Assembly (NCBI GenBank): GCA_964597055.1
Contig: CAZQWC010000008.1
Coordinates: 121,603-185,602, forward strand
Direction of reading: 5' to 3'
Source: an uncultured Sphingorhabdus sp.
GTDB lineage: Bacteria; Pseudomonadota; Alphaproteobacteria; Sphingomonadales; Sphingomonadaceae
DNA: 64,000 nt
This document shows, in pieces, positions 13,785 to 63,526 of the stretch. The notes below the pieces were generated by a model. That model was not told the DNA's origin. It saw only the letters and a program-made list of their open reading frames with translations, and ran no database searches. A program made the position numbers and the translations under genes. The stretch's first letter is position 1; every line of letters begins with the position of its first letter.

Positions 13785-13825
13785 AAAGAGCCGTCCTTCC
13801 CAATCGGAAGGGCGGCTTTTTCTTT
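13785..13825 (+). terminator. Rho-independent terminator after phasin
   Basis: AGCCGTCCTTCC-CAATC-GGAAGGGCGGCT followed by TTTTCTTT. Confidence 0.85.
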
Positions 13826-13835
13826 GCTCATCTCG

Positions 13836-13974: not shown

Positions 13975-14031
13975 AACATTTACCATTAACAGCACTTGCG
14001 GAACGCCCCCACCTTACCCTATTTTCGGGAC

Positions 14032-14397: not shown

Positions 14398-14400
14398 TTG

Positions 14401-16092
14401 CTATTTCGGCGAACTGTCTGCCAAACCGCCAAACACAGTCTTTCCGTCCTTGATCGTCGCAACAACGCGCAGCTTGTAAAGATCTGCTGGGTCGGCGGTC
14501 AGTGGATTGCCATCTAGCAAGACAAGGTCGGCGCGCTTGCCGGGCTCAATGCTGCCCTTGTCCTTATCCTCGCCAATTTGCCATGCAGCGTTGATTGTTA
14601 CCTGCTGCAATGCGCGATAGACCGGAATACGTTCCAATGGCCCCAAAATGTCGCCTGTCTGCGTGCGGCGGTTCACTGACGACCAGACCAACCGCATGAT
14701 ATCAGGGGGAACGACCGGCGAATCGTTATGCGCAGTCGGGCGCAAGCCCAGCGACCAGGCGGTTGCCTGCGGCGAGATGAAGTCGGCGCGCTTTGGCCCC
14801 AATGCCATATCGCGGTGCCAGTCCCCCCAATAGTAAGTGTGGTTGGCAAAAAAGCTCGGCTGGATGTCGAGCGTCTTCATCTCCTCAAGCTGGCCGCGCT
14901 GGACGACCTGGCTGTGGATCGCGATCGTCCGTTTGCCGGAAAGCCCGTTGGCGCGGACGCCATCGATCAAGGCCTGCGCGGCAGCATCCCCGTTCACATG
15001 GGCAAAGACCTGCCAGCCATTTTTTGCCGCATCGGAGAGTTTTTCATTAAACTGCTTCAGATCGATCGCCGGATATCCGGCATAGCCTTCCTTCTGCCCG
15101 TCTGGCGGGACAGGAACCGGGTCCTTCAGCCACGCCGTCCGGCCCTGCGGCGAACCGTCGAGGGTAAGCTTGATGCCGGCGATACGGAGATTGCCGCTAT
15201 AGCTCTTTCCTATGCGTCCTCTAACTTCTTCCGGCCAATTACGTTCGAAAGACACTAAGGTGACGATATCAATTGGGAACAAACCGCGCTTGGCGGCTTC
15301 ATCAAGTGCAGCCCAGTTTTCGGGCATTACACGCCCATCCTGCCCGGTTGTAATGCCATTTGCGGCGTAAATCTTCGCCCCGGCCACCAGCGGAGCAATT
15401 GCGGCATCAATGCTGGCGGGGGTGAGGATCTTGATTATGGGATACATGGCCGTTTCTTCGACCACGCCATTTGGCGTCTTTCCGTCTGCCTCCCGCCGGA
15501 TTACGCCACCTTGCGGATCGGGTGTGTCGGGCCCGTAGCCGACAAGCTTAAGCATGGCAGAATTCATTGACGCGAAATGGCCGCTCACATGGATGATCAG
15601 GATCGGGATGTCAGTCGACACCATATCGAGATCGGCCCGTGTCGGGTGACGTCGCTCGGTTAGTTGAGAATCGTCATAGCCATTGCCAATCAGCAACGGC
15701 ATACCATCGGGACGCTTATAATTACGCAGCGCGTCCAGCAACTCTGCCATATTGGTCACCCGTGCAACCGGCGGGGGTTGCAATTGGGCCATCGCAGCGT
15801 TTTGACCGACATATCCCATATGCCCGTGCGCATCGATAAACCCGGGGAGCAAAGTCCTCCCTTTTAGGTCAACCATCTCAACCTTACCGCGAGCGACCTT
15901 TTTCACTTCCGCCAGTTTTCCGGTGGCCGCAATACGACCCTCGCGTAACAGAACCGCCTCGACAGACGCCGCCTCATCGCCCGCCATGGTGATGATCGGT
16001 CCACCTGTCAGGATTGTGTCAGGCGCCTTGGGCGGCGTCGCGGCGAGCAACAGCGGCGCAAGCAGTAACAGGTGATGGCGGCGCATTTTCAT
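14401..16092 (-). CDS. Secreted amidohydrolase-3 (YtcJ-like) metal-dependent hydrolase
   Basis: Signal peptide, LPGFIDAHGH, HVNGDAA and GSIEPGKRADLVLL motifs; SD GGGAGG. Confidence 0.88.
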   Translation of the reverse strand: MKMRRHHLLLLAPLLLAATPPKAPDTILTGGPIITMAGDEAASVEAVLLREGRIAATGKLAEVKKVARGKVEMVDLKGRTLLPGFIDAHGHMGYVGQNAAMAQLQPPPVARVTNMAELLDALRNYKRPDGMPLLIGNGYDDSQLTERRHPTRADLDMVSTDIPILIIHVSGHFASMNSAMLKLVGYGPDTPDPQGGVIRREADGKTPNGVVEETAMYPIIKILTPASIDAAIAPLVAGAKIYAANGITTGQDGRVMPENWAALDEAAKRGLFPIDIVTLVSFERNWPEEVRGRIGKSYSGNLRIAGIKLTLDGSPQGRTAWLKDPVPVPPDGQKEGYAGYPAIDLKQFNEKLSDAAKNGWQVFAHVNGDAAAQALIDGVRANGLSGKRTIAIHSQVVQRGQLEEMKTLDIQPSFFANHTYYWGDWHRDMALGPKRADFISPQATAWSLGLRPTAHNDSPVVPPDIMRLVWSSVNRRTQTGDILGPLERIPVYRALQQVTINAAWQIGEDKDKGSIEPGKRADLVLLDGNPLTADPADLYKLRVVATIKDGKTVFGGLADSSPK

Positions 16093-16178
16093 TGTCCCCT
16101 CCCAAGGAATATTTGTGCCTGTATCGATTGCAAATTCGCAACTGGCAAGCAATCCTGCGATGACGAGGAGAATCATCA

Positions 16179-16904
16179 ATGGCCGCAGCATTGATTATCG
16201 GGGCAGGTGACGCGACGGGCGGTGCCATCGCCAAGGCCTTTGCCACAGAAGGCTACACAGCCTGCGTCAACCGCCGCCCGCGACATTCCGATAAGCTGGA
16301 GGAGCTGGCGCAATCGATACGCGACGCCGGACATAAGGCTCAGGCCTATCCGGCGGATGCGCGCGACGAGGATGCGATGGTAGCATTGGTCGAGACTATC
16401 GAACGCGATGTCGGGCCTATCGAAGTCGCGGTCTTCAACATAGGGGCCAATGTCCGCTTCGGTATCACCGAGACGACGGCTCAGGTTTATCGAAAGGTCT
16501 GGGAGATGGCGACTTTTGCCGGCTTCCTGATGGGGCGTGAGGTTGCACGGCATATGGTGCAGCGGCAGCGCGGCACGATTATCTTTACCGGTGCAACTGC
16601 CTCAATCCGCGGCGGCGCAGGCTATTCGGCATTTTCAGGAGCCAAGGCCGCGCTGCGTATGCTGGCACAATCTATGGCGCGCGAGTTGGGGCCGCAGAAT
16701 ATCCATGTAGCGCACAGCATCATCGACGGCGGTATCGACACCGAATTTATACGCGGCATCCGTCCTGATTTCGACGACGCCAAGGCAAATGAACTGGTGC
16801 TGTCGCCAGAGGCCATTGCTGCGCAATATGTTGCACTGCATAAGCAGCATCGCAGCGCGTGGACCCACGAGCTGGACCTGCGCCCTTGGGGAGAAACATG
16901 GTGA
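16179..16904 (+). CDS. SDR family oxidoreductase
   Basis: IGAGDATGGAIA, FTGATAS and AFSGAKAALR motifs. Confidence 0.9.
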   Translation: MAAALIIGAGDATGGAIAKAFATEGYTACVNRRPRHSDKLEELAQSIRDAGHKAQAYPADARDEDAMVALVETIERDVGPIEVAVFNIGANVRFGITETTAQVYRKVWEMATFAGFLMGREVARHMVQRQRGTIIFTGATASIRGGAGYSAFSGAKAALRMLAQSMARELGPQNIHVAHSIIDGGIDTEFIRGIRPDFDDAKANELVLSPEAIAAQYVALHKQHRSAWTHELDLRPWGETW

Positions 16905-17503
16905 GCAAAAGCTTTGAATTCCTGTTTGATTTCGGCGGCCCCAACAGCTTCCTTGCCCACAAAGTTCTACCAGATCTGTGCAAGGAAACAGGCGCAACGG
17001 CCACCTATGTGCCTATCCTGCTGGGCGGACTTTTCAAAATCACCAACAATCAAGCGCCTATGATGCGCTATGCCGAAACGCCGGCAAAGCGCGACTATGA
17101 AATGCTTGAGTTCAACCGTTTCGTAAAGGCGCATAACCTTCCATTCAAAATGAACCCCAATTTCCCCATCAACTCGCTGCACCTGATGCGCGGTGCAGTT
17201 GCTGCGCAGCATTTGGGCTGCTTCATGCCCTATGTCGAAGCGATCATGGCGGCGATGTGGGAGGATGGTGCGAATATGGGCGATCCGGCGGTTGTCAAAG
17301 ATGTACTCGATGCAGCCGGGCTGGATGGAGCAGCTCTGCTTGCCAAAGCCGAGGACGCGGAGGTGAAGGCTGAACTTGTTACAAACACCGAAAAGGCCGC
17401 TGCACGCGGTGCATTTGGCGTGCCCACTTTCTTCGTCGGCAATGAAATGTTCTGGGGCAAAGAGCGACTGGGCCAGGTAGCGGAAGCGCTGCGCAAAGGA
17501 TGA
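16898..17503 (+). CDS. 2-hydroxychromene-2-carboxylate isomerase / GST-kappa family protein
   Basis: FLFDFGGPNSFL, PILLGG and GAFGVPTFFVGNEMFWGKERL motifs; overlaps the SDR stop. Confidence 0.88.
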   Translation: MVSKSFEFLFDFGGPNSFLAHKVLPDLCKETGATATYVPILLGGLFKITNNQAPMMRYAETPAKRDYEMLEFNRFVKAHNLPFKMNPNFPINSLHLMRGAVAAQHLGCFMPYVEAIMAAMWEDGANMGDPAVVKDVLDAAGLDGAALLAKAEDAEVKAELVTNTEKAAARGAFGVPTFFVGNEMFWGKERLGQVAEALRKG

Positions 17504-17539
17504 GCTTGCACGCGGCGCGCATCGCGCTAAACCGCTGCG

Positions 17540-18823
17540 ATGGACAAAATAATCATTCGCGGTGGCAATAAGCTCAAAGGCAAAATTCCAATTTCGGGAG
17601 CGAAAAACAGCGCGTTGACGCTGCTGCCTTGCGCGCTTCTCACTGACGAGCCGCTTACACTTCGAAACTTGCCGCGCTTGGCCGATATTGACGGCTTCCA
17701 GCACCTGATGAACCAGTTCGGCATTTCGACGACGATTGCCGGTTCGCGTCCCGAGGATTTTGGCCGGGTGATGACGCTGGAGGCAACGCGCATCACTTCG
17801 TCGGTTGCACCCTATGAACTGGTCCGCAAGATGCGTGCCTCGATACTCGTGCTTGGCCCGATGCTCGCTCGTATGGGTGAAGCGACCGTGTCGCTGCCCG
17901 GTGGCTGCGCAATCGGCAACCGCCCGATTGACCTCCATTTGAAGGCGCTCGAAGCCTTTGGTGCAGAGATTGAGTTGGCCTCAGGGTACGTCAAGGCAAC
18001 CGCGCCCAAGGGAGGGCTACCAGGGGGCAGTTATACCTTCCCCGTGGTTTCGGTTGGCGCGACTGAAAATGCTTTGATGGCAGCCGTGCTCGCCAAGGGC
18101 ACGTGCGTGCTGCACAATGCCGCTCGCGAACCCGAAATCGTTGATCTTTGTAATTTGCTCGTCGCCATGGGCGCTGAAATCGAAGGCATTGGTAGCTCTG
18201 ACCTTACCATCCACGGCAAGGATAGGCTGCACGGTGCCACCTACAGGGTGATGGGGGATCGTATCGAGGCGGGCAGCTATGCTTGCGCGGTTGCCACAAC
18301 CGGCGGCGAAGTTGAACTTATCGGTGCCAATGAAAGCGAAATGCAGGCAACTGTCGATGCGCTGCGGGCATGCGGCGTTACCGTTGAATCGATCAAGGGT
18401 GGCTTACGTGTGGCCGCAGAAGGTCGCCTGAAACCGCTGACCATCTCAACCGCCCCCTATCCCGGCTTTGCCACCGATATGCAGGCACAGTTCATGGCGA
18501 TGCTATGCATGGCCGATGGTGCCAGCGTGCTGACCGAAACCATCTTCGAAAACCGCTATATGCATGTCCCCGAGCTGAACCGCATGGGTGCGCATATCGA
18601 AACCAAGGGGCGCACCGCCATCGTGCACGGCGTGCCCAAGCTGACCGGTGCACCGGTGATGGCCACCGACTTGCGCGCCTCGATGAGCCTTATCATCGCA
18701 GGCTTGGTCGCCGAAGGACAGACTGAGGTCAGCCGCATCTACCACCTCGATCGCGGTTATGAACGGTTGGAGGAAAAACTGAGCCTCGTTGGAGCGGACA
18801 TTGAACGGGTCGGGGCGGACTAA
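17540..18823 (+). CDS. murA: UDP-N-acetylglucosamine 1-carboxyvinyltransferase
   Basis: [35 protein letters not shown] and HLDRGYE motifs. Confidence 0.98.
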
Positions 18824-50524: not shown

Positions 50525-51097
50525 TCAGATATTTGATCTTTCTTCCTGAACCGATTCGAGTGCTCGGTAGAGCGTGGCATGGTGGCATTTGAGGAGTTTG
50601 GCGGCTTCTCTGACCGACGTTCCCTCGTTCACCAAGCGACTTCCCAGCATAATTTGGTCTGCTGTCAGCTTCGGTGGTCGACCAAAACGGACCCCGCGCG
50701 CCTTTGCCGCGATACGACCAGAGCTTGTGCGCTGGTGGATGAGCGCGCGCTCGAATTCTGCGATCCCGGCAAAAACGGTCAACACCATTCGACCGGCGGG
50801 GGAAGTTGTGTCAGCCCAAGGCTCAGCCAATGATTTAAGGCCGGTGCCGTGCTCATTCAAACGTTCCGCAATTTCGAGAAGGTCGCGGGTAGAGCGTGCG
50901 AGGCGATCGAGTCGGGTGACAATGACCACATCTTCGGAGCGAATGTTATCGAGCAACCGGGCCAATTCGGGCCGATCTCGGCGTGCTCCTGAAATCTTCT
51001 CTTCAAAAATCCGCGTGCAGTCGGCAGCATTGAGTGCTGCCCTCTGGAGCGTGAGGTCCTGATCGTCCGTCGAGACGCGTGCATAGCCAATCAACAT
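50525..51097 (-). CDS. tnpR: Serine recombinase / Tn3-family resolvase
   Basis: MLIGYARVSTDDQ, VTRLDRLARS, DTTSPAGRM, AEFERALI, GVRFGRPPKL and C-terminal HTH. Confidence 0.93.
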   Translation of the reverse strand: MLIGYARVSTDDQDLTLQRAALNAADCTRIFEEKISGARRDRPELARLLDNIRSEDVVIVTRLDRLARSTRDLLEIAERLNEHGTGLKSLAEPWADTTSPAGRMVLTVFAGIAEFERALIHQRTSSGRIAAKARGVRFGRPPKLTADQIMLGSRLVNEGTSVREAAKLLKCHHATLYRALESVQEERSNI

Positions 51098-51210
51098 GTC
51101 GCATATATGTATCGAAACTAGAGGCTTTAGCAACAGATATTTGCGACACGCATTGATGCCATTATTCATGGCTCACCGACAGTGTCGCAGAAATTAGGAG
51201 TTATGCGACA
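51097..51210. promoter_or_regulatory. Putative res site (resolvase subsites)
   Basis: TGTCGCA (51097)...TGCGACA (51142) and TGTCGCA-N14-TGCGACA (51183-51210), overlapping the tnpR start. Confidence 0.7.
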
Positions 51211-52267: not shown

Positions 52268-55264
52268 GTGCCAGGCACATTTTACGAGCAGCCGATCCTT
52301 AACTCGCCTTACAGCGAGCCGCGCTACCATCACCCCTTGGATGATCACGGGCAGCCGCTTGACCAACCCGCAGTTGAAGGGCGTCGGACATCCAAGTTTA
52401 TCGTTCCCGTCCCGAAATCGCGAAAAGTGGCAGCAGCCGCGCAGGCTTCGCTCGACCTCGAAACCTATACACCCAATAGCCTGATTAACGAGATCAGAGG
52501 CTATGTCGATGCTTGGCGCAAGACACCAAACCCGGCAGATTGGGGAGTCACGCCAACTACGGCCCGGCTTTTGGACTATTGGCGCAATCACAATTTTTCA
52601 TCTGTTCGCCCCTTCTTTTGTCAGGTCGAAGCAGTCGAAACGATTATCTGGCTAACCGAAGTCGCGCCGAAGCGAGCAGCTACGAAGGGTCTGCTAGATC
52701 AAATCCAGAGAGCCAATGACGAGGCAAATCCGGCGCTATTCCGACTAGCCATGAAGATGGCGACCGGCAGCGGCAAAACAACGGTCATGGCGATGCTGAT
52801 CGCATGGCAGACGGTTAACGCCGTACGGCGCGATTCGAAGCTATTTAGCCGCGCCTTCCTGATCGTTGCGCCGGGGATCACCATCAAAGACCGCCTGCGC
52901 GTCCTGATGCCAAGCGCGCCCGATAATTATTACGAAGAGCGCGAGCTAGTTCCGCCTGAAATGCTGAACGAAGTGAAGCGTGCTGAGATTGTGATCACCA
53001 ATTATCACGCCTTTCAGCACCGCGAGACCGGCCCGACCGGCAAAGTCGCGAAAGGCCTGCTTCAGGGTAACGACCCTGAGCCGATCCGCACCACCGAAAG
53101 TGACGGCGAAATGCTGCGCCGGGCTTGTGGCCATCTTCTCAATCACAAAAACGTCAATGTCATCAATGATGAGGCGCACCACTGCTATCGCCACAAGACC
53201 GGCGGCGAAGAGGAAAAGCTGACCGGCGACGACAAGAAGGAAGCCGAGGCTAACGAGGAAGCTGCCCGGCTGTGGATCAACGGCATCGAGGCATTGAAGC
53301 GCAAAGTCGGAGTGCGTGCCGTCCTTGATCTATCCGCCACACCTTTCTTCTTACGTGGCTCGGGCTATCCCGAAGGCTTCCTCTTCCCGTGGGTCGTTTC
53401 GGATTTCAGCCTGATGGATGCGATTGAATGCGGTATTGTCAAACTGCCGCGCGTTCCGGTCTCTGACAATCTCCCACAGACAGAGACACTTGTTTACCGC
53501 GATTTATGGAAACATGTCGGTAAACACCTGCCCAAAAGTGCCGCTGCTGCTGGCAAACTTGACCCCTCCAGCCTGCCCAACGAGTTGAAGACCGCACTTT
53601 ACGCACTCTACAGCCACTACAAAGAAACCTTTGAACTGTGGGATCGTGAGGGCATCGACGTGCCCCCAGTTTTCATCGTGGTTTGCCAGAATACCGCCAT
53701 TTCCAAGTTAGTGTTTGAATGGATCGCTGGCTTTGAACGCGACTTGGGCGAGGATGGCAGTGATCGCGCACGATTTGAGATCGGCAATCTTGAACTATTC
53801 AGCAATTACGATCCCACAGGCGGACGTTTCCCGCGCCCCCGAACGCTCCTGATCGACTCCCGCCAGATCGAAGCGGGCGACGCGCTCGACAAAAGTTTCC
53901 GCGACATGGCCGAAAGCGAAATCGAGCAATTCAAGCGCGAACTGAACCAGCGCGATGGCGCGGGTAGCGGCGACAAGGTGAGCGATGGAGAACTGCTCCG
54001 CGAAGTGATGAACACTGTTGGGCGCAAGGGTAAGCTGGGCGAGCAAATCCGTTGCGTCGTTTCGGTCTCAATGCTGACCGAGGGATGGGATACCAACACC
54101 GTAACGCACATCCTGGGCGTCCGCGCGTTCGGCACGCAATTGCTGTGTGAACAGGTCGTTGGGCGTGGCCTGCGTCGGCAGTCCTACGATCTCGATCCCG
54201 AAACCGGCCTGTTCCCGGTTGAATATGCCGACATTATGGGCATCCCGTTCGACTTCTCAGGCAAGCCGCAGACGGCAACGCCAATCAAGCCGCGCCCCGT
54301 CACGCGCGTTCACGCGATCAAAGAGCGTAGCGAGCTTGAGATCATCTTCCCGCGTATCAGCGGCTACCGTAAGGAATTGCCAGAAGAGCGGCTTGAGGCA
54401 GAGTTTGACGAAGAGTCCAAGCTGATCATCACCACAGCCGATATTGGGCCGACATCTGTCTTAATGGAGGGCATTGTTGGCCAAAGCACGCTGATCACAA
54501 CGCAGGTGCTGGAAAGCCTTCGCCCGTCGGAAATCAGCTTCAATCTCGGCAAATATTTACTCAACAATCATTTCCGCGACAATGATGGCCTCGCCAAGCG
54601 GCACTTGTTCCCGCAAATTCAGCGGATTGCCCGGCGCTGGATCGATGGCGGTTATCTGGTTTGCGCAGGCGTGCCGATTGGGGCGATCCTCTATGAAGAC
54701 CAACTCGCCCGCGCCGCGCAGAAGATCAACATTGCGCTGTCCCGAGCGAGCGACAGCCCGGTGAAGGCGGTGCTTGATCCTTACAATCCCAAGGGATCGA
54801 CGCGATTTGTCAACTTCATCACCTCGAAGGCGTGCTGGACGACCGGGGCGCGGCCTCCCAAAAGCCATATCAGCCATGTCGTGCTCGATAGCAGCTGGGA
54901 GGAGCAGCTGGCAGGCGTGCTGGAAAACCATCCGCGCGTCATCGCCTATGCCAAGAACCAGGCATTGGGATTTGAAGTGCCTTATCTGGATGGCGCGGTC
55001 TTGCGCCGCTACGTCCCCGATTTTCTGGTGCGGCTTGATGTCGGTCAGGCCGAGCCTTTGAACCTTGTGCTGGAGGTGAAGGGCTATCGCGGCGAGGATG
55101 CCAAGCTCAAGGCTCAAACGATGCGCGACCTGTGGGTGCCCGGCGTCAACCAGATGGGCGGCTTTGGCCGGTGGGCGTTTGCGGAATTTAGCGATTGGGC
55201 GGTGATGGAAGAGGATTTCGCGGCGCTGGTTGAGCGGTTGATTGGGAGTACGGGGCATGAGTGA
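52268..55264 (+). CDS. res: Type III restriction endonuclease Res subunit (BPTD_3080-like, res-before-mod subfamily)
   Basis: KMATGSGKT, NDEAHH, SVSMLTEGWD and C-terminal YVPDF...LEVKG PD-(D/E)xK nuclease. Confidence 0.93.
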   Translation: MPGTFYEQPILNSPYSEPRYHHPLDDHGQPLDQPAVEGRRTSKFIVPVPKSRKVAAAAQASLDLETYTPNSLINEIRGYVDAWRKTPNPADWGVTPTTARLLDYWRNHNFSSVRPFFCQVEAVETIIWLTEVAPKRAATKGLLDQIQRANDEANPALFRLAMKMATGSGKTTVMAMLIAWQTVNAVRRDSKLFSRAFLIVAPGITIKDRLRVLMPSAPDNYYEERELVPPEMLNEVKRAEIVITNYHAFQHRETGPTGKVAKGLLQGNDPEPIRTTESDGEMLRRACGHLLNHKNVNVINDEAHHCYRHKTGGEEEKLTGDDKKEAEANEEAARLWINGIEALKRKVGVRAVLDLSATPFFLRGSGYPEGFLFPWVVSDFSLMDAIECGIVKLPRVPVSDNLPQTETLVYRDLWKHVGKHLPKSAAAAGKLDPSSLPNELKTALYALYSHYKETFELWDREGIDVPPVFIVVCQNTAISKLVFEWIAGFERDLGEDGSDRARFEIGNLELFSNYDPTGGRFPRPRTLLIDSRQIEAGDALDKSFRDMAESEIEQFKRELNQRDGAGSGDKVSDGELLREVMNTVGRKGKLGEQIRCVVSVSMLTEGWDTNTVTHILGVRAFGTQLLCEQVVGRGLRRQSYDLDPETGLFPVEYADIMGIPFDFSGKPQTATPIKPRPVTRVHAIKERSELEIIFPRISGYRKELPEERLEAEFDEESKLIITTADIGPTSVLMEGIVGQSTLITTQVLESLRPSEISFNLGKYLLNNHFRDNDGLAKRHLFPQIQRIARRWIDGGYLVCAGVPIGAILYEDQLARAAQKINIALSRASDSPVKAVLDPYNPKGSTRFVNFITSKACWTTGARPPKSHISHVVLDSSWEEQLAGVLENHPRVIAYAKNQALGFEVPYLDGAVLRRYVPDFLVRLDVGQAEPLNLVLEVKGYRGEDAKLKAQTMRDLWVPGVNQMGGFGRWAFAEFSDWAVMEEDFAALVERLIGSTGHE

Positions 55265-55265
55265 T

Positions 55266-55321
55266 GTACGATTTTCGTACGAAATTAATTGCGAAGTAGG
55301 ACATTACGTCCTATGTAAGCT
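55266..55321 (+). promoter_or_regulatory. Palindrome-rich internal promoter/operator region between res and NYN
   Basis: GTACGA-TTT-TCGTAC, TTTCGTACGAAA (55273-55284), TAGGAC-ATTAC-GTCCTA (55297-55313). Confidence 0.45.
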
Positions 55322-55329
55322 TCACATCT

Positions 55330-55394
55330 GCCCCTTGAGAGTAGGTTGGCCCGTTAATCGAGGGCCGTACCGAAATCTTGGGGCTTATTTTTTT
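55330..55394 (+). ncRNA. Structured RNA leader of the NYN gene, ending in a U-tract
   Basis: GCCCC..GAGA / TCTT-GGGGC outer stem, GGCCC/GGGCC inner hairpin, then TTATTTTTTT; 14 nt before the ATG. Confidence 0.6.
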
Positions 55395-55408
55395 CAGGGC
55401 CAGCGCAT

Positions 55409-56230
55409 ATGAATGGCGGCCCCATCCTTACCCGACAAATTGCAATCATGATCGACGGCGGTTTCTTTCTGCGCCGTGCGGAATCAATGGGTTTAATTCG
55501 GCGCATCGGTGATGTTGATACAATCGCCGCTCTGTTGCGGCGCATGTGCCGCCGTCATGTCCAGATGCTGACGGGGCAAGACGGCAAAAACTGGCACCGT
55601 CACATTTACCGCATATTTTATTATGACGCGCATCCCTATTCCGGCGTCGCCCACCATCCGCTTCACAATCAGCAATTCTTCTATGAAAAAAGCGACATGG
55701 CCGTATTCCGGCGCGCGCTGTTCGAACGATTGCGGCAAGAGCGCAACGTGGCGCTCCGCCTAGGCGAGGTTATCCGGCACGATGAATGGGTGATCCCCAC
55801 GCACAAGCTAAAGCCGCTTTTGCCTTCACGGGATTGGTTCGCCGGGATCGATTTTGACGCAGTGGACGATCAGGGCCGGATCACGCTTTCCGCCGAAGCA
55901 CTGGAAACGGCAAAGCGGCTGCAGGGCAAATGGCAGAATTTGCAGAACGACGATGTGTCACTAGATCTGCGTCAAAAGGGTGTTGATATGCGGATCGGGC
56001 TGGATATCGCTGCTCTCGCACTCAAAAGGTTCGTAAACACGATCATCCTTGTAACTGGCGACAGCGATTTTGTGCCTGCCGCCAAACTGGCCCGACGCGA
56101 AGGAATACAATTCATCCTCGATCCGCTTTGGCAACCGCGCAAGGTGGATGAATTGCTTGAACATATCGATGGCCTGCAATCCGGCCTCCCCAAACCCAGA
56201 CCACCCAAACCGGCAGGAAACCCCGCATAA
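55409..56230 (+). CDS. NYN-domain (LabA/DUF88, PIN-fold) ribonuclease
   Basis: IMIDGGFF, QKGVDMRIGLD and LVTGDSDFVPAAKLARREG motifs; stop overlaps the mod start (TAATG). Confidence 0.9.
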   Translation: MNGGPILTRQIAIMIDGGFFLRRAESMGLIRRIGDVDTIAALLRRMCRRHVQMLTGQDGKNWHRHIYRIFYYDAHPYSGVAHHPLHNQQFFYEKSDMAVFRRALFERLRQERNVALRLGEVIRHDEWVIPTHKLKPLLPSRDWFAGIDFDAVDDQGRITLSAEALETAKRLQGKWQNLQNDDVSLDLRQKGVDMRIGLDIAALALKRFVNTIILVTGDSDFVPAAKLARREGIQFILDPLWQPRKVDELLEHIDGLQSGLPKPRPPKPAGNPA

Positions 56231-59169
56231 TGGCCCGCGCCCCGAAATCGCCTAAATCCGTTGATGCGCTGAAGCATGATGCGGCATCGCGCCGAAATAT
56301 TCCTACAGCGGAGATGGAGAGTTTCTTCCTGCGGGAAGAGGATAATGCGCCGATGCCGCCGGTGGCTTATCCGCGCGCGCGGCCGTTGGCAGCGGGGGAG
56401 ACGCGGACGGAGGATGAGGTTTCCAGCCCCGAGCTGATCTGGAACGGCGCGAAGATTAAAATAACGCCCGCGCAGATGGAACAGCTTGCCACCACCGGCG
56501 AGCTGGAGCTGGGCGATGCGCAACTGGTGTGGCGGGGGAAGGATACGCAGGACTGGCAAGACCTGATCGTCAATGTGCCGCCGCTCTATATTCAGGAGAA
56601 GATCCACCCCAAGGCGATCATCGACGATCTGAAACGCCGGGCGGCGCAGAACAAGGAGGCGGCCAGCGCCGCGCCTGATCTGTTCGCCGATTTCAACGGT
56701 GTGCCGCCGGATGCGCGCGCGGAATTTTACCAGCACGACCAGCACTGGTCGAACCGGATGATCCTGGGCGACAGCCTTCAGGTGATGGCCAGCCTGGCCG
56801 AGCGCGAATCCTTACGCGGTAAGGTGCAGTGCATCTATTTCGATCCGCCCTACGGGATCAAATTCAACAGCAATTGGCAGGTATCGACGCAAAGCCGCGA
56901 CGTGAAGGACGGCAAGCAGGCCGACATCAGCCGCGAGCCCGAACAGGTGAAGGCGTTCCGCGATACCTGGAAGGACGGCATCCACTCCTACCTCACCTAC
57001 CTCCGCGACCGCCTGACCGTGATGCGCGACCTGCTGACCGACAGCGGCAGTATTTTTGTGCAGATTGGCGATGAAAATGTGCATCGGGTGCGCGCGGTGA
57101 TGGACGAGGTGTTTGGGGAAGAGAATTTCCGCTCCTGCATTTACTTTGCCACCACAGGAGGCCTTGCGACGAATGGGTTAAGCCGCATCGGGGATTACGT
57201 TCTTTGGTTTTCGAGGTCGGATCAGCCCAAAATTCGCCCGCTCTTTGTCGAGAAGAGGGGCGCCGATGACGATACAAGTGCCTACAAAAGTATCGAATTG
57301 TTGGACGGGACGCGCCGTCGTCTCACCGTAGCCGAACAGCAAAACACCGAATTGCTACCGGAGGGATCGAAGGTATTCCGCATTAGCGATTTATGTGGTC
57401 AGGGTCCGCCTAATCAGCCGACACCTTTCGATTTTGATGGCATCACATACAATCCGACCAAGAGCAGCCATTGGAAGCCAAACTACCCGAACGGGATGCG
57501 CCGTTTAGCCCGTAGCCAGAGATTTTACGGCACCGGAAAAACTCTAAACTACGTCCGCTATTTCGAAGATTACGCCGTGTCTCCATTCAATGATGTATGG
57601 CTAGACACCGGTCACTCGGGTTTCGCCTACGATAAGCTCTATGTCGTGCAAACTGCAACAAAAGTCATCGAACGCTGCATCCTGATGGCGACCGATCCCG
57701 GCGATCTCGTTCTCGATCCCACCTGCGGCTCTGGCACTACTGCCTATGTCGCCGAGCAATGGGGGCGGCGCTGGATCACGATGGACACCAGCCGGGTCGC
57801 GCTTGCGCTGGCCCGCACCCGCATCATGGCGGCGCGATACCCTTGGTATTTGCTCGCCGACAGCAAGGAAGGCCGCGCCAAGGAAGCCGCGCTCACTCAG
57901 CGCGTGCCCGCCGAAACGCCCGTCCATCACGATATCCGCCAAGGCTTCGTCTATGAACGCGTGCCGCACATCACACTGAAAAGCATCGCCAACAATCCGC
58001 TGATCGATGAGATCTGGGAGAAGTGGCAGGCGGTGCTTGAACCACTGCGGGCGGCGTTGAATGCGGCCTGCGGCGAGACGTGGGAAGAATGGCAAATTCC
58101 GCGTGAATTGCCCGCGACCACTCCGCCATCTGCCGCCGATCCTCACGCCAAATGGTGGGAGGCGCGCATCGCCCGCCAGCAGGAAATCGACGCCAGCATC
58201 GCCGCGCGCGCCGATGTGGAATATCTTTATGACAAGCCCTATCAGGACAATGCCCGCGTCCGCGTCGCGGGGCCGTTCACCGTCGAAAGCCTCTCCCCCC
58301 ACCGCGTCCTTCCCGCCAGCGAAGAGGAGCTTATCGAAGAGGTTGAGGCTGCCGAGGGCAAACGCCGCCGCGTCACCGGCGATGCGGTGGACAGCGATTT
58401 CGTGCCCAATGTGCTCGATTACCTCAAATCCGAAGGCGTGAAGCAGCAGGACAAGGGCGACCGCATCACCTTTGAAAGCCTGTCCCCCTGGCCCGGCCAC
58501 TGGATTGGCGCGCAGGGCGTTTTCATGGAGGGCTCGGAAGGCCAGCAGGTGGAGCGCCGCGCGGCCATATTGATCGGGCCGGAATTCGGCACGCTGGGCC
58601 GCGCCGACCTCGTTGCCGCCGCGCGTGAGGCCGCCGATGCGCGCTTCGACCTCGTCATCGCCTGCGCTTTCAACTTTGACGCCCATTCATCAGAACTGGG
58701 CAGCCTCGGGTCTTTGCGCATCCTGAAGGCGCGCATCAACCCCGACATGCAAATGTCCGGCGAGCTGAAGAATACCGGACGTGGAAACATGTTCATCGTC
58801 TTTGGCGAACCCGATGTGGAGATATTGGACGACGGCGGCGAAACCATCCGCGTGAAGGTGAACGGCGTCGATGTGTTCGACCCCAATACCGGCGATATCC
58901 GCAGCAACGACACCAAGGGCATCGCCGCATGGTTCATCGACACCGACTATAACGAAGAAAGCTTTTTCGTCCGCCACGCCTATTTCCTCGGCGCGAACGA
59001 TCCGTACAAATCACTGAAAACTGCGTTGAGGGCGGAGATTGATGAGGAGGCGTGGGCTACGCTCTATGCCGACACCTCCCGCCCGTTCGAGCGGCCAGCA
59101 GGCGGCCGGATTGCGGTGAAGGTGATCAATCACTTCGGCGATGAAGTGATGAAGGTGTTTGGGGTTTAG
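56230..59169 (+). CDS. mod: Type III RM Mod subunit (beta-class N6-adenine methyltransferase, long C-terminal extension)
   Basis: YFDPPYG (motif IV), then a variable TRD, then VLDPTCGSGTT (motif I); directly linked to Res. Confidence 0.93.
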   Translation: MARAPKSPKSVDALKHDAASRRNIPTAEMESFFLREEDNAPMPPVAYPRARPLAAGETRTEDEVSSPELIWNGAKIKITPAQMEQLATTGELELGDAQLVWRGKDTQDWQDLIVNVPPLYIQEKIHPKAIIDDLKRRAAQNKEAASAAPDLFADFNGVPPDARAEFYQHDQHWSNRMILGDSLQVMASLAERESLRGKVQCIYFDPPYGIKFNSNWQVSTQSRDVKDGKQADISREPEQVKAFRDTWKDGIHSYLTYLRDRLTVMRDLLTDSGSIFVQIGDENVHRVRAVMDEVFGEENFRSCIYFATTGGLATNGLSRIGDYVLWFSRSDQPKIRPLFVEKRGADDDTSAYKSIELLDGTRRRLTVAEQQNTELLPEGSKVFRISDLCGQGPPNQPTPFDFDGITYNPTKSSHWKPNYPNGMRRLARSQRFYGTGKTLNYVRYFEDYAVSPFNDVWLDTGHSGFAYDKLYVVQTATKVIERCILMATDPGDLVLDPTCGSGTTAYVAEQWGRRWITMDTSRVALALARTRIMAARYPWYLLADSKEGRAKEAALTQRVPAETPVHHDIRQGFVYERVPHITLKSIANNPLIDEIWEKWQAVLEPLRAALNAACGETWEEWQIPRELPATTPPSAADPHAKWWEARIARQQEIDASIAARADVEYLYDKPYQDNARVRVAGPFTVESLSPHRVLPASEEELIEEVEAAEGKRRRVTGDAVDSDFVPNVLDYLKSEGVKQQDKGDRITFESLSPWPGHWIGAQGVFMEGSEGQQVERRAAILIGPEFGTLGRADLVAAAREAADARFDLVIACAFNFDAHSSELGSLGSLRILKARINPDMQMSGELKNTGRGNMFIVFGEPDVEILDDGGETIRVKVNGVDVFDPNTGDIRSNDTKGIAAWFIDTDYNEESFFVRHAYFLGANDPYKSLKTALRAEIDEEAWATLYADTSRPFERPAGGRIAVKVINHFGDEVMKVFGV

Positions 59170-59178
59170 GGGGAAATC

Positions 59179-59796
59179 ATGCCGAAGACAGTCGAGTGGT
59201 ATCCTAAAATTCGGAACCAAAGCCTCGCCCTTGCGGTGCGTGAGGCTGGCTTTGATCTAACAATGTTTGATGAATATTCGGAAGCAACACAGACCGAAAT
59301 TCGGAAACGCGCTATCAAAATTGTTCTCCGAAACATTGCAGAGGAATTTGAGAACGTCACTGGCAAGGAGCTATCCGACATACGCCAAGGTGTGTACGTC
59401 ATTTGTGTTTCTAGTCCTTTTACAATCGGATACGAGTCGGGATGTAGCGAGGTAATTTACATCGGCATCGGTAAGATCGCATCGCGATTGGAATCTCATT
59501 TCAACAAAAGTCTTTTCGATTTTATGATGAGCGTTGCAGGCGCAAATTTCGACTTTTATCTGACCGAGCCAAAAGGCTCTCCTGGTGATTTGTACTACAA
59601 GCACATCGAATATATGCTTCTCGAAAAGTTTTGGGATAAGCATGATTGCTATCCGCTCCTGAATACCAACGCAGGCAGTCGCAAAGAATTTGACGAAATA
59701 GGGAAGGGTTGGGACAAGCCGCTTAAGGCATCGGGTAAAAAGCCGATTTGGGAAATTCGCGCGACCAAACATTGCGAATTTGCAAAGTTGGATTGA
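59179..59796 (+). CDS. GIY-YIG-like nuclease
   Basis: GVYVI...VIYIGIG...RLESH...IEYMLLE...PLLN matches the GIY-YIG R/E/N catalytic layout; visibly AT-richer. Confidence 0.7.
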   Translation: MPKTVEWYPKIRNQSLALAVREAGFDLTMFDEYSEATQTEIRKRAIKIVLRNIAEEFENVTGKELSDIRQGVYVICVSSPFTIGYESGCSEVIYIGIGKIASRLESHFNKSLFDFMMSVAGANFDFYLTEPKGSPGDLYYKHIEYMLLEKFWDKHDCYPLLNTNAGSRKEFDEIGKGWDKPLKASGKKPIWEIRATKHCEFAKLD

Positions 59797-61866
59797 ATGA
59801 ACTTCCTCATCGCCGACACCTTCACAGCATCCTTCAACCGCCTGTCAGGGCAGGATCAGAAGGCGGTGAAAGCGAGCGTGTTCGACCTGCAAATGGACCC
59901 AACGGGCAACGGGCTACAACTTCACCGGATTGATCAATCAAAAGATGCAAACTTCTGGTCGGCGCGGGTCAACCGCGATGTCCGGCTGATCGTCCACAAA
60001 ACCACAAGCTCGATGCTGGTTGCCTATGTTGATCATCATGACAAGGCCTATGCCTGGGCCGAACGCCGCCGGATTGAAGCGCATCCGAAAACCGGTGCGA
60101 TCCAGATCGTCGAAGTGCGCGAGTTGGTGGAGGAGGTTGCGCCACCCGAAACCTTCGATTTTGTCTTTCCGGCACAAACCGCCCCCGCAGCATCCGAAAG
60201 CCTGCGCCACTTTGCCTCGCTCAGCGATGAAGCCTTGCTGTCTGTTGGAGTGCCCGCGGATTGGTTGGCCGATGTCCGCGCGGCAAGCGAGGACGATTTC
60301 TTCACCCTCGCCGATCATTTGCCCGCAGAGGCAGCTGAGGCCCTTCTGGAATATGCGGATACGGGCAAGCTTGTCGTGCCCGCGCCGGTAGCGGCAGCCG
60401 ATCCCTATACCCACCCCGATGCACTGCGCCGCATCCGCCCGATTGCCGATCAGGTAGAGCTCGAACAGGCGCTGGCCTTCCCTTGGGAAAAATGGGGCGT
60501 TTTTCTGCACCCTTCGCAACGCGAAATTGTGGAACGGAGTTATTCCGGGCCAGCTCGTGTCGCCGGTTCGGCGGGTACCGGCAAGACCGTGGTCGCATTG
60601 CATCGCGCGGTCAGGCTTGCACGCGAGAACCCCGCCGCGCGTGTGTTGCTGGCCAGCTTTTCACAACCGCTTGCAGATGCCTTGACCAAAAAGGTGTCAG
60701 TGCTTGCGCCCGATACCGGCACCGTCGTTCCACGTATTACGACTGCTTCATTCCAAGGTATCGCAGATCAACTGCATCAGCTTGAACATGGCGTGCGGCC
60801 ACGCATTGCGTCTGAACCTGTCCTTCGCGAGCGGATAGCAGAAGCGGCAAAGTCGTTTCAGATAACCGGCTTTTCAGAACGCTTCCTGCTTTCCGAATGG
60901 ACCAACGTGATCGACGCGTGGGGGATCAGGACGGAGGGCGAGTATGTAGATGTGCAGCGCATGGGTCGCAAAGCCAGGTTGGGGCCGAAACAACGCGAGC
61001 GCCTTTGGCCCGTCTTTGACGCTGTTCGCCAAGCCTTGGCCGCCGAACGTTACACCACTTGGCCAGTTGTATTTTCAGACTTGGCCCAGCGCTTTGAGAG
61101 CAAAACTGCCAAGCCGTTTGACCATATCCTGATCGATGAAGCACAGGACCTAGGACCGTCAGAACTGCGTTTTTTCGCGGCCATTGCGCCCGACCATTCA
61201 GACGCGCTTTTTCTGGCTGGCGATTTGGGGCAACGCATTTTCCAGCATCCTTTTTCGTGGAAAGGTTTGGGCGTCGATGTGCGCGGACGGTCCTTCACAT
61301 TGAAAGTTTGTTATCGAACATCGCAGGAAATCCGCCAAGCTGCTGACGGATTGTTACCCACTGTGTTGCGGGACGTCGACGGCAATGAGGATGAACGGCG
61401 CGGGACAATTTCGGTGTTCAGCGGACCGGAACCTTATGTAAAAATCAATGCTTCGACCGGCGAGGAATCGGCCATCGTACGTGCCTTCATCGAGAAGGCT
61501 CTGGCGGACGGGATCAGCGCGAATGAGATTGGTATTTTTGTTCGATCTCCTGCCCAGGTTGAACGCGCGCTCACATGCGTTTCAGACATTGCAGGTCGGG
61601 AACAGATTACGGTGAATGTAATGCATCTCGCTAAAGGCCTGGAGTTTCGCGCGGTCGCAATAATGGCCTGTGATGAGGGCATCCTCCCCTTGGATGAACG
61701 GGTCGCAGAAGCCACTGACGATGCGGAACTGGACGACGTTTACGAGACCGAGCGCCGGTTGCTATATGTTGCCTGTACGCGGGCTCGAGAACGATTGATG
61801 GTGAGTGGGGTCGCCCCCGGATCGGAATACCTCAACGATCTAAATTCGGCACAAAACACCGACTAG
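59797..61866 (+). CDS. SF1 UvrD-like helicase with N-terminal RelE/ParE-like domain
   Basis: GSAGTGKT, IDEAQD, GDLGQRI, YRTS, HLAKGLEF and LYVACTRA; N-terminal about 88 aa (FTASFNRL...FWSARVNRDVRLIVH...YVDHHD). Confidence 0.88.
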   Translation: MNFLIADTFTASFNRLSGQDQKAVKASVFDLQMDPTGNGLQLHRIDQSKDANFWSARVNRDVRLIVHKTTSSMLVAYVDHHDKAYAWAERRRIEAHPKTGAIQIVEVRELVEEVAPPETFDFVFPAQTAPAASESLRHFASLSDEALLSVGVPADWLADVRAASEDDFFTLADHLPAEAAEALLEYADTGKLVVPAPVAAADPYTHPDALRRIRPIADQVELEQALAFPWEKWGVFLHPSQREIVERSYSGPARVAGSAGTGKTVVALHRAVRLARENPAARVLLASFSQPLADALTKKVSVLAPDTGTVVPRITTASFQGIADQLHQLEHGVRPRIASEPVLRERIAEAAKSFQITGFSERFLLSEWTNVIDAWGIRTEGEYVDVQRMGRKARLGPKQRERLWPVFDAVRQALAAERYTTWPVVFSDLAQRFESKTAKPFDHILIDEAQDLGPSELRFFAAIAPDHSDALFLAGDLGQRIFQHPFSWKGLGVDVRGRSFTLKVCYRTSQEIRQAADGLLPTVLRDVDGNEDERRGTISVFSGPEPYVKINASTGEESAIVRAFIEKALADGISANEIGIFVRSPAQVERALTCVSDIAGREQITVNVMHLAKGLEFRAVAIMACDEGILPLDERVAEATDDAELDDVYETERRLLYVACTRARERLMVSGVAPGSEYLNDLNSAQNTD

Positions 61867-62160: not shown

Positions 62161-63417
62161 TCAAATCACCCTAGGCCCCATCCGAGCAGTCCCTTTCCCA
62201 AGGTCCGGGCCTGGAAACTGTACCACTTCACCACCAGATCGAAGTTGATCTAGATAGTCGCTCCACCATTGATGCATCGCCACGCGTTCATCCCAATAGC
62301 GTCCCCGGTTGTATGTCGCGCGCACCGCGTTGCTATCCGCATGGGCCAGAGATCGTTCAATGGCATCGGGGTTCCACTTGCCGCTTTCGTTCAACAGCGT
62401 GGACGCCGTGGTGCGCCATCCGTGCGCTGTCATCTCGCTTGTTGTGTACCCCATCCGGCGCAGCGCCTGATTAATAGTGTTCTCGCTCATGGGCCGCAGC
62501 GATGTGTGAAATGCGGGAAATACGAAGCCGGTTGGGCCGGTCAGCGGATGCAAATCAGCGAGATACCCCATTACCTGTCGGGAGAGCGGAACCGAGTGAG
62601 GACGCCGCGCTTTCATCCTTCCTTGGGGGACAGTCCACACCGCCTTCTCGAAGTCAAATTCGTGCCATTCGGAAAGGCGCAGCTCGCCAGGTCGGGACAT
62701 TAGATGGGGCGCGATTTGCATCGCGATGCGAGTGATCGCCGAACCCGAATAAACATCGATAGCGCGCAGCAACTCGCCCACCGCCTTGGGCTCTATAATG
62801 GCTGCATGGTGCGTGACCTTGGGCGTTATTAGCGCGCCGGAAAGAACTACGGCGGGATCGTGTTCCGCCCTCGCCGTTGCAATTGCATAACGGAAAACCC
62901 GACTGGCAAATGAACGGCAACGTCGGGCGGTCTCATACTTGCCTTTAGCTTCCAATCGGCGCAGCGCAGCAAGCACTTCGATGGGTCGAATATCCGCAAC
63001 TGGCATCTTTGCGATGGGCTCCAGCTGCTGCAACAGCCAAACCGCTTTGGTGACGGTCACTTCCGCCTTTTGTTCGGCAATCATCTTGCGCTGGATATAT
63101 TCGCGCGCGACATCGCCAAACACATTGGCCGCGCTGATTGAAGCAATCAGGCGCTTGCGTTGACGCTCTGCGGAGGGATCAATGCCATCGTCCAACAGCC
63201 GCCGCGCGTCTTCTTGTTTGCGGCGGGCAGCAGAGAGCGACACCGCTGGATAGCGCCCGAGCGAGAACCGCTTTTCCTTGCCGCGAAAAGTATATTTGTA
63301 CCGCCACAGTTTGGAGCCGTTCGGCTCGACCTCGATATATAGTCCGCGCTGATCGACTTTCTTGTATCGTTTGTCGGCGGGCTTGAGCGAGCGAAGCATG
63401 GCATCAGTAAGCGGCAC
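62161..63417 (-). CDS. int: Tyrosine integrase, P4-like with N-terminal arm-DNA-binding domain
   Basis: GLYIEVEPNGSKLWRYKY, SRPGELR, HGWRTTAST, LAHAD and YNRGRY motifs; GTG start with SD AGGAG. Confidence 0.93.
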   Translation of the reverse strand: MPLTDAMLRSLKPADKRYKKVDQRGLYIEVEPNGSKLWRYKYTFRGKEKRFSLGRYPAVSLSAARRKQEDARRLLDDGIDPSAERQRKRLIASISAANVFGDVAREYIQRKMIAEQKAEVTVTKAVWLLQQLEPIAKMPVADIRPIEVLAALRRLEAKGKYETARRCRSFASRVFRYAIATARAEHDPAVVLSGALITPKVTHHAAIIEPKAVGELLRAIDVYSGSAITRIAMQIAPHLMSRPGELRLSEWHEFDFEKAVWTVPQGRMKARRPHSVPLSRQVMGYLADLHPLTGPTGFVFPAFHTSLRPMSENTINQALRRMGYTTSEMTAHGWRTTASTLLNESGKWNPDAIERSLAHADSNAVRATYNRGRYWDERVAMHQWWSDYLDQLRSGGEVVQFPGPDLGKGTARMGPRVI

Positions 63418-63475
63418 AATCGAACTCCTTCTTGGTCCGGGGTCGATCACGTATCGCCACAGCAAATTTATGTGC

Positions 63476-63526
63476 TGGGGCAACCGGTTCGGGTCACCTC
63501 AAACTGCCCCAAATTTCTGCCCCAAA
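63476..63526. repeat. Putative integrase arm-type sites, right end
   Basis: CTGCCCCAAA at 63504 and 63517 (13 bp apart) plus inverted TGGGGCAA at 63476. Confidence 0.6.

Follow-up and report, generated by a model that had tools for sequence, protein, structure and literature searches.

A Type III-like restriction-modification locus with an ArmD-like helicase and two variable gene slots in an uncultured Sphingorhabdus

A locus of five co-oriented genes, located in a 64,000-nucleotide stretch of DNA from an uncultured Sphingorhabdus sp. (contig CAZQWC010000008.1; the whole stretch is referred to as the window), is best read, with a probability that we put at about 0.7, as a three-gene Type III-like restriction-modification (RM) core plus exchangeable cargo in two slots, carried on an integrase-bearing island. 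The predicted core consists of a restriction subunit (Res), a methyltransferase (Mod) and a helicase resembling ArmD (Hel), while the cargo comprises, in this strain, a gene for an NYN-type protein (NYN gene) between Res and Mod and a gene that we call orf4 between Mod and Hel. The initial annotation of the locus, made from the DNA letters, had described the five genes as one composite, layered defense operon. We conclude that the object of interest is the triad with its slots and not this particular combination of five genes, which should not be annotated as a fixed system.

A conserved triad and two variable slots

We compared the locus with 80 Res-anchored loci from different species, whose Res proteins were 54–92% identical to that of the window. 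These species were mostly Alphaproteobacteria, with some Beta- and Gammaproteobacteria, Chloroflexota, Eremiobacterota, Gemmatimonadota-like bacteria and Bacteroidota. Mod followed Res in 72 of the 80 loci, and Hel followed Mod in 53 of the 62 loci for which enough downstream sequence was available. When the loci were ordered by Res identity, Hel was present in 31/31 at 70% or above, in 18/20 at 58–70% and in 4/11 below 58%. Hel was always the last gene and co-oriented with the others, it abutted Mod where the position between the two was empty, and nine loci consisted of the bare triad with both slots empty. Res, Mod and Hel covaried in how closely they matched their counterparts in the window (r = 0.86–0.92 for the identities), and sampling from the Hel side returned the arrangement Res-(x)-Mod-(x)-Hel in three out of three contexts. 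Since the Res-Mod-Hel order is conserved in more than 50 species, and the complete five-gene block recurs with 100% identity on an independent metagenome contig (L087), the order stands above chance. The initial annotation had suggested a gene-neighborhood survey of this kind; its outcome ties the helicase to the RM genes (53/62 evaluable loci, with a divergence that tracks that of Res and Mod at r = 0.92) and does not show the NYN gene and orf4 to be fixed members.

The positions between Res and Mod (slot 1) and between Mod and Hel (slot 2) differed from locus to locus. The Res-Mod gap ranged from 12 to 4025 bp and was empty (12–76 bp) in 28 of 72 loci, and the Mod-Hel gap ranged from -1 to 3822 bp and was empty in 11 of 53. 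Gap genes encoding at least 100 amino acids (aa) clustered into cargo families, approximately 18 of them in slot 1 and 41 in slot 2; just one family, GmrSD-like, was common to both slots, and nearly all of these genes were co-oriented with the core. GmrSD-type enzymes were the most common slot-1 cargo. Pfam matches among the cargo included GmrSD, REase-ARP/PDDEXK_13, NOV_C, HNH_2, PDDEXK_4, PIN, metallo-beta-lactamase (MBL), DUF4062, DUF6119 and ASCH+DUF4357, and PADLOC reported HEC-05/PDC-M55C/NsnA/SspE-like proteins (10), PDC-S11 (8), HNH, TmtA, HEC-06, PDC-S14 and a TIR effector. The content of slot 2 was the same in just 4 of 110 pairs of loci with Res proteins at least 85% identical, and even pairs at 93–97% identity differed. 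These slot-specific repertoires could be the result of regulation, of coupling to the adjoining core gene or of constraints on recombination. The two backbones closest to that of the window (L004 and L005) carry other cargo, and their identities to the window are mosaic (91–92% for Res, 76% for Mod and 79% for Hel), which points to recombination within the operon.

The NYN gene and orf4 behave like such cargo. Homologs of the NYN protein occupied slot 1 of L006, L066 and L074 (3–4 of 72 related loci), those of orf4 occupied slot 2 of L029 and L065 (2 of 53), and the two assorted independently of each other, being found together only in this strain, including the identical contig L087. The claim of a composite five-gene system is not sustained by this distribution, which marks the two genes as interchangeable. 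Their failure to co-occur with the RM genes across the surveyed backbone is what the initial annotation had itself named as evidence against its proposal; this verdict is softened by the recurrence of both families beside other types of RM genes. In the contexts sampled, the NYN gene and orf4 are best viewed as accessory genes that accompany RM systems and travel from one RM locus to another, and not as subunits of Res-Mod-Hel.

Two sets of related loci had unusual content next to Mod. In a Nitrospirota locus (L086), slot 2 (6905–18436) spans 11.5 kb ahead of the terminal ArmD-like helicase and holds genes for an AAA_15 ATPase, DUF429, an orf4 homolog, CTD6, MC2, a second AAA ATPase and an OLD/TOPRIM + UvrD (Gabija-like) pair. 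In four Hel-less loci (L040, L053, L055 and L080), Mod was directly followed by HNH + GmrSD, by a NOV_C/MTaX1 protein or by a DDE transposase, and the terminal helicase has apparently been lost, been displaced or come to lie beyond the fetched sequence.

Table 1. Positions (in the window) and strands of the five genes, their slots and domains, and flanking mobile-element genes.
Feature	Position	Strand	Remarks
Serine recombinase (resolvase/invertase)	50525-51169	-	Pfam Resolvase 1e-42 + HTH_7; left mobile-element marker
Res	52268-55264	+	998 aa; GTG start; core gene 1
Variable slot 1 (Res|Mod)	55265-56229	+	here a 144-nt spacer and the NYN gene
NYN gene	55409-56230	+	273 aa; slot-1 cargo
Mod	56230-59169	+	979 aa; core gene 2
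Divergent central segment of mod	57137-57630	+	DNA homology to L004, L005 and L029 breaks, then resumes; between motif IV and motif I
Variable slot 2 (Mod|Hel)	59170-59796	+	here orf4
orf4	59179-59796	+	205 aa; slot-2 cargo
Hel	59797-61866	+	689 aa; core gene 3
Hel, predicted RelE/ParE-fold N-domain (aa 1-113)	59797-60135	+	alignment, PDB profile, AlphaFold (AF2) model and Foldseek
Hel, helical middle domain (aa ~140-235)	60214-60501	+	conserved, also aligned in ArmD; AF2 secondary structure
Hel, superfamily 1 (SF1) UvrD/GajB-like helicase core	60502-61866	+	Pfam UvrD-helicase / UvrD_C / AAA_19; PADLOC GajB 1e-22
P4-type tyrosine integrase	62161-63483	-	Pfam Arm-DNA-bind_3, Phage_int_M, Phage_integrase; directly downstream of Hel; right mobile-element marker

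Predicted functions of the five proteins

Res matched the NCBIfam model NF046055 (BPTD_3080 family restriction endonuclease) with 1248.6 bits at a cut-off of 800, its residues 7–986 aligning to positions 2–968 of the 970 in the profile. In Pfam it gave ResIII and a weak C-terminal RE_endonuc match. With 24.6 bits at a cut-off of 564, the protein is no member of NF012027, the curated family of Type III Res proteins, and the REase_III models of PADLOC reached just 18–27 bits over approximately 45 residues. Motifs of a superfamily 2 (SF2) motor were recognized as Walker A (GxGKT, G167–T171), DEAH (301–304), SAT (356–358) and motif VI (QxxGRxxR, Q629–R637), and the C-terminal PD-(D/E)XK nuclease residues as D918, E936 and K938; these catalytic motif residues are kept in 79 of 79 homologs. 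No match of DruE, DrmA or YprA type was reported for Res by PADLOC. By its motifs, Res is a Type III-like restriction subunit that combines a predicted SF2 translocase with a predicted PD-(D/E)XK nuclease.

Mod carries the Pfam domain N6_N4_Mtase (PF01555, 7e-32) and matched the PADLOC model MTase_III (PDLC03632) end to end with 1200 bits. The DPPY motif (205–208) lies ahead of the CGSGT motif (499–503), and both are kept in 55–57 of 57 homologs. This motif order is that of a beta-class DNA methyltransferase, with N6-methyladenine (m6A) as the product predicted from DPPY. The divergent central segment of mod (Table 1) is likely the target-recognition domain, by analogy with the architecture of Type III Mods, and its divergence makes it likely that Mod specificities differ among relatives. 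The C-terminal ~440 residues of Mod (~540–979) had no Pfam match, even though they are conserved across the family. They form a C-terminal extension that makes Mod approximately 330 aa longer than the Mods of the EcoP1I/EcoP15I type, and also much longer than the classical Type III Mods of 545–599 aa in L084 and L093. This extension may be a docking surface for Res or Hel.

Hel has three regions, of which the N-terminal one is the best conserved: the first 113 residues are ~85–93% identical where the whole protein is ~73% identical. Invariant residues of this domain include H43, R44, W54, S55, R57, R63, H67, Y77, H80, H81, Y85, W87, R90 and R91. When the family profile was compared with the PDB, the top match was the RelE3 chain 3bpq_B, aligned end to end at E = 0.054; the Pfam model HigB-like_toxin remained below its cut-off (19.2 bits, with 27 required) and matched weakly in 21 of 22 members. 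We then relied on an AF2 model of residues 1–235, in which the N-domain had a predicted local distance difference test score (pLDDT) of 83–91. Foldseek searches with the modeled N-domain returned YoeB, RelE, YafQ, ParE and HigB at a probability of 1.0, target TM-scores of 0.6–0.79 and root-mean-square deviations (rmsd) of 2.3–3 Å, the best values being E = 3e-5 for YoeB (2a6r_C) and a target TM-score of 0.79 with an rmsd of 2.3 for 3bpq_B. The CARF-RelE effector Cami1 (8phj) was also among the matches. At the level of a structural model, these results settle that the N-domain has a RelE/ParE fold, with the element order beta-alpha-alpha-beta-beta-beta(-alpha). Residues R57, R63, H81 and Y85 could be catalytic, as judged from a weak alignment with YoeB, and the domain may cleave mRNA on the ribosome, bind RNA or provide contacts alone. 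No conserved small antitoxin gene lies 5' of Hel in the surveyed loci, where the preceding gene varies or is Mod. The idea that orf4 encodes an antitoxin acting on the RelE domain was also considered and rejected, given that orf4 is missing from nearly all Hel-bearing loci. A search with the N-domain among representatives at 50% identity gave 2048 clusters; most of the listed matches (lengths of 106–703 aa) fell far short of the ~690 aa of the helicases and look like gene fragments, so that this search was uninformative on alternative architectures.

A variable linker modeled with low confidence (aa 114–139) separates the N-domain from the helical middle domain, which is followed by the helicase core. 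The helicase motifs are intact, with Walker A GSAGTGKT (including K263), DEAQD (447–451), YRTS (506–509) and VACTRAR (658–664). In BLASTP, Hel was 32% identical to a 704-aa protein of E. coli (E = 5e-98), collinear over residues 5–670 and thus across all three regions. We take this E. coli protein to be ArmD, because its Walker A residue K266 and Walker B residue D454 are the residues mutated in the published ArmD (PMC12458937); the Hel counterparts are K263 and D447. By sequence comparison, Hel is an end-to-end homolog of ArmD. At an identity of at least 95%, armD itself occurs in 533 of 5426 complete E. coli genomes, in 540 places (518 chromosomal and 22 on plasmids, including IncY); one such IncY plasmid carrying armD is NZ_CP139341 (L178).

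Homologs on plasmids extended this picture. A tblastn search against plasmids found a bare triad on a conjugative plasmid of Pseudomonas avellanae, annotated there as a BPTD_3080 family restriction endonuclease, a site-specific DNA-methyltransferase and a 3'-5' exonuclease. More distant full-length homologs of Hel came from Thermus and from E. coli and Klebsiella plasmids, where they adjoin giant methyltransferases and helicases of 1838–2113 aa. The plasmid neighbors match DruE models of the Druantia system at 1e-97 to 1e-104, and the neighbor of E. coli ArmD does so at 2e-104.

The NYN protein matched Pfam PF01936 with 35 bits at a cut-off of 24.2, with an aligned region confined to residues 188–235. 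In 31 homologs D16, D73, D193, D199, D218, D238 and D254 are invariant and D220 is nearly so, and this NYN/LabA-like PIN-fold protein is a predicted metal-dependent nuclease and probably an RNase. Most of its ~30 closest homologs (metagenomic, at least 45% identity) lie in Res-NYN-Mod(-...-Hel) loci of the same backbone. Other close homologs belong to Type I loci with the order hsdM-hsdS-NYN followed by proteins of 751 and ~519 aa, and a Brucella genome has the order NYN-Mod(545 aa)-Res(880 aa). Among the 89 immediate neighbors of 60 NYN homologs, the top Pfam domains were N6_N4_Mtase (10), ResIII (8), Phage_integrase (7), Methylase_S (4) and N6_Mtase (3), and homologs at 38–43% identity had varied contexts. 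In the Type I RM loci L090–L092 and L099–L101 (from Marinobacter and metagenomes), NYN was always followed by the 751-aa protein, which has no Pfam match, and the ~519-aa protein, which has a faint PDDEXK_7/DUF2357 match; the three may form a conserved accessory module.

orf4 belongs to a family of 93 homolog clusters, all of them labeled 'hypothetical' and with zero Pfam domains. Its conserved residues are G71, Y73 (within GVY73), Y85, Y94-I-G96, R103, H107, E144 and N162, and the AF2 model (pLDDT 88.8) has the order beta-beta-beta-alpha-beta-alpha, which is compatible with a GIY-YIG core. In a per-member Pfam scan, GIY_YIG_2 was the most common weak match (9 of 46 members, best E = 0.019). 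Foldseek of the model against the PDB gave nothing at E <0.1 and no GIY-YIG structure among the top 50 matches listed, while GIY-YIG entries in BFVD matched weakly, at E = 0.4–1.4 only. An hhalign comparison with one bona fide GIY-YIG neighbor protein returned a probability of 0.1, and the orf4 profile had no significant match to PDB sequences, the best one, Gtr2, looking spurious. It is plausible, at roughly even odds, that orf4 encodes a divergent GIY-YIG-type nuclease. Outside the surveyed backbone, a member of the Dehalococcoidia has an orf4 homolog directly behind classical Mod (599 aa) and Res (868 aa) genes.

Taken against the initial annotation, these searches agree with the labels Type III-like Res, NYN, DPPY-type Mod and RelE-fold/UvrD helicase, and the domain matches bear out its reading of the locus as a Type III-like RM operon that contains additional genes with nuclease folds. 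The GIY-YIG label had motifs and topology behind it and no significant match.

Known systems, possible working and rival readings

Since ArmD is the last gene of the experimentally validated phage-defense system ARMADA type II (ArmA-ArmB-ArmC-ArmD, described in E. coli; PMC12458937, 10.1101/2025.09.22.677730), we compared the locus with this system. Both end in an ArmD-type gene, and both join a methyltransferase, an ATP-dependent helicase-nuclease and ArmD in co-directional order on mobile elements. However, the operon in the window is without the BrxHII/Snf2-like ArmA, the PglX-like ArmB and the YprA-like DEAD/DEAH helicase ArmC with its DUF1998 and Vsr-type nuclease, and has a Type III-like Res and a beta-class PF01555 Mod instead. 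In addition, a strict gene order is described for ARMADA, and the accessible portion of its text (PMC12458937) does not mention cargo slots. We therefore rejected ARMADA membership: ArmD has its counterpart here, and ArmA, ArmB and ArmC are absent. The searchable text of the two ARMADA reports (PMC12458937; 10.1101/2025.09.22.677730) did not tie ArmD-like genes to Type III-like RM.

The locus resembles the classical Type III RM systems EcoP1I and EcoP15I in that the DPPY motif of Mod precedes FxGxG, with a variable center between them, and in that Res joins an SF2 motor to a C-terminal PD-(D/E)XK nuclease. It differs from them by a Res outside the curated family, by the order res-[slot]-mod-[slot]-hel in place of a two-gene mod-res operon, by the longer Mod, by a third conserved gene and by the two variable slots. 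Cleavage by Type III systems requires ATP, a Mod2Res complex and a pair of asymmetric, unmethylated sites in inverse orientation. PrrC, which is embedded in the EcoprrI Type IC locus (PMC12707154), and RloC offer a precedent for an RNase-fold gene inside an RM operon and for layering RM with an RNase, as do other RM-linked RNase domains (PMC3710099). Nevertheless, the NYN and RelE-like folds are unrelated to theirs, and none of the five proteins has an ABC-ATPase or anticodon-nuclease domain. Variable defense genes at fixed positions between conserved genes are known from BREX islands, in which BrxU (GmrSD) acts independently of its host system (PMC12707154), and from P2/P4 elements, which are reported to carry hotspots of antiviral systems (PMC9122126). 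In the window, by contrast, the slots lie inside an RM operon, between subunit genes, and there are two of them with nearly non-overlapping repertoires. Even though the helicase core of Hel best matches GajB models in PADLOC (1e-22), GajB is without a RelE-like N-domain, and Gabija was rejected since no OLD/TOPRIM GajA is present in the operon. As the initial annotation had suspected, the combination does not correspond to a named system, PADLOC having returned only generic matches. A literature search for 'BPTD_3080' found nothing, and one on Type III RM with UvrD/RelE fusions found general precedents only, before ARMADA emerged via the plasmid matches. Two features appear to be undescribed in the literature searched: that a BPTD_3080-type RM is paired with an ArmD-like helicase, and that an RM operon contains two hypervariable positions, each with its own slot-specific content.

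On the reading of a three-gene core with exchangeable cargo, Mod would methylate an asymmetric site as m6A and thereby mark host DNA, and Res-Mod would recognize unmodified sites on incoming DNA and cut in an ATP-dependent manner. Hel might engage the DNA ends or intermediates arising from Res, as GajB-type helicases do, and then either drive further processing or switch on its own RelE-like domain. By analogy with ArmD, Hel would be needed for full defense and would not be a pure suicide back-up. The slot genes might add activities that are independent of the RM core or coupled to it, widening coverage: GmrSD-type cargo, where other loci carry it, would act on modified phages that evade RM, and the NYN protein and orf4 would contribute nuclease activities. 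Cargo would likely be swapped through homologous recombination between the core genes, which are conserved and flank each slot. A bolder version holds that BPTD_3080-family Res-Mod-ArmD-like loci are a distinct and widespread defense class with the RelE-fold helicase as an obligatory third subunit that it has in common with ARMADA II, that the slots are a dedicated cassette-exchange platform whose cargo (NYN, orf4 family, GmrSD-like, PDC-S11 and others) is wired to the core (for example, triggered by Hel or by the condition of Res-Mod) and not simply placed beside it, and that NYN and orf4 are new RM-dependent effectors; we regard this version as tentative and on balance doubtful.

Several observations weigh against a three-gene core with free cargo. 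Hel is missing from 9 of the 62 evaluable loci, for the most part those furthest removed from the window, and in two of these nine a transposase directly follows Mod; because Res-Mod can evidently exist without Hel, the helicase may have been added to the system and not be one of its subunits. Members of the NYN subfamily (identity of at least 48%) are nearly confined to slot 1 of this backbone or to other RM loci, and this confinement, along with an orf4 family member that follows a classical Mod-Res pair, argues for RM-specific coupling over free-standing cargo. We infer the exchange of cargo by recombination solely from mosaicism, the open reading frames of related loci were called mechanically, and the literature searched held no experiment on the Res-Mod-Hel family.

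The first of these points would also suit a Hel that is an autonomous single-gene defense or abortive module, joining a toxin to a helicase sensor, and that travels beside RM genes and plays no part in restriction. Its homologs indeed sit beside three different systems (BPTD_3080-type RM, E. coli ARMADA II and the DruE-like genes of Thermus), its RelE domain is the most conserved part, and in EDL933 the loss of armD is reported to have had a weaker effect than mutation of the other arm genes. We nevertheless consider such independence unlikely. Hel is always last, co-oriented and abutting Mod where slot 2 is empty, its divergence parallels that of Res and Mod (r = 0.92), and every context sampled from its own side had Res-Mod. 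Moreover, the publication on ARMADA II reports that removing any one of its four genes, or the ArmD substitution K266A, abolished protection in a plasmid assay, with D454N lowering it (PMC12458937).

The same source reports ARMADA II defense to be direct and non-abortive (PMC12458937), and this bears on the model of the initial annotation, in which all five genes form a layered system, the NYN protein and the RelE-helicase serve as guards or abortive effectors upon RM inhibition, and the GIY-YIG protein adds DNA targets. With its homolog ArmD needed for primary defense in a non-abortive system, a guard or abortive role for Hel is weakened. In addition, the five-gene combination occurs in this strain only, NYN and orf4 are each found in ~4% of related loci, which elsewhere hold dozens of unrelated genes or nothing, and neither has a sensor or ATPase domain recognizable by Pfam or PADLOC. 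The tight and apparently coupled gene junctions, the precedents of PrrC in EcoprrI (PMC12707154) and RM-linked RNase domains (PMC3710099), the RelE domain that serves as a defense effector in Cami1 (8phj) and the recurrence of the NYN and orf4 families beside RM genes all speak for the layered model, to which we give very little credence all the same. Just as improbable is a scenario in which the slot genes, at least orf4 and those of HNH type, are selfish, free-standing homing endonucleases of no benefit to the host. Free-standing homing endonucleases classically include proteins of GIY-YIG-like and HNH type, each slot has its own cargo, which is rapidly replaced among nearly identical backbones, and the genes sit precisely between conserved ones. 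However, most cargo families are not of homing type (GmrSD, PIN, NYN, MBL, TIR-like, ASCH, DUF6119), many of its families match defense or candidate models in PADLOC, orf4 homologs also lie at another junction (after the classical Res in Dehalococcoidia) and mid-slot in L086, and the GIY-YIG assignment of orf4 is itself unproven.

If the reading of a triad with exchangeable cargo holds, a Type III-like RM family of ordinary appearance, with an NCBI family name and no published study in the literature searched, is connected to ARMADA II by a shared ArmD-type helicase, and ArmD-like proteins may be a general accessory of ATP-dependent, methylation-based defense. With its much smaller set of three genes, the triad would lend itself to studies of the role of the RelE-fold helicase. 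The slots, which join one backbone to dozens of alternative small genes, many of them without an assigned function, could then serve as natural experiments and as a compact source of candidate genes for defense or for accessory roles in RM, among them the NYN subfamily and the orf4 family. Their specific repertoires and fast turnover pose the question whether RM-embedded genes are coupled to their host system, like PrrC, or independent of it, like BrxU.

Gene junctions, genomic island and occurrence

The coordinates and all junctions of the five tightly linked, co-oriented genes were exactly as initially annotated. The TAA stop of the NYN gene overlaps the ATG of Mod by one base (TAATG at 56228–56232), 9 nt separate the Mod stop from the ATG of orf4, and the TGA of orf4 directly abuts the ATG of Hel without a spacer. 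The NYN/Mod overlap and the orf4/Hel abutment suggest translational coupling, which is compatible with functional coupling and does not prove it. At the fourth junction, as read from the sequence, Res ends with TGA at 55264 and the spacer listed in Table 1, absent from the initial annotation, precedes the NYN gene. It contains, just 5' of the NYN start (55340–55400), a GGCCC...GGGCC stem-loop with a T-run ~20 nt further on (TTATTTTTTT), which could be an attenuator, the remnant of a terminator or the scar of a cargo insertion. The stem-loop was missed by a consensus terminator scan, promoter and terminator scans scored no better than on shuffled sequence, and Rfam had no match within 46–64 kb of the window.

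The operon appears to be carried on a genomic island, as judged by the recombinase and integrase genes at its two sides (Table 1) and by a dip in GC content at 48–53 kb (0.525–0.55, as opposed to ~0.59 upstream). Neither a tRNA gene nor a flanking direct repeat was found within the 64-kb window, and the attachment site or right end of the island would therefore lie beyond position 64000. Copies of the triad also occur on plasmids and on IMG/VR contigs. The sequence of the locus itself was present in DNA metagenome runs only, originating from bioreactor, sludge and wastewater samples.

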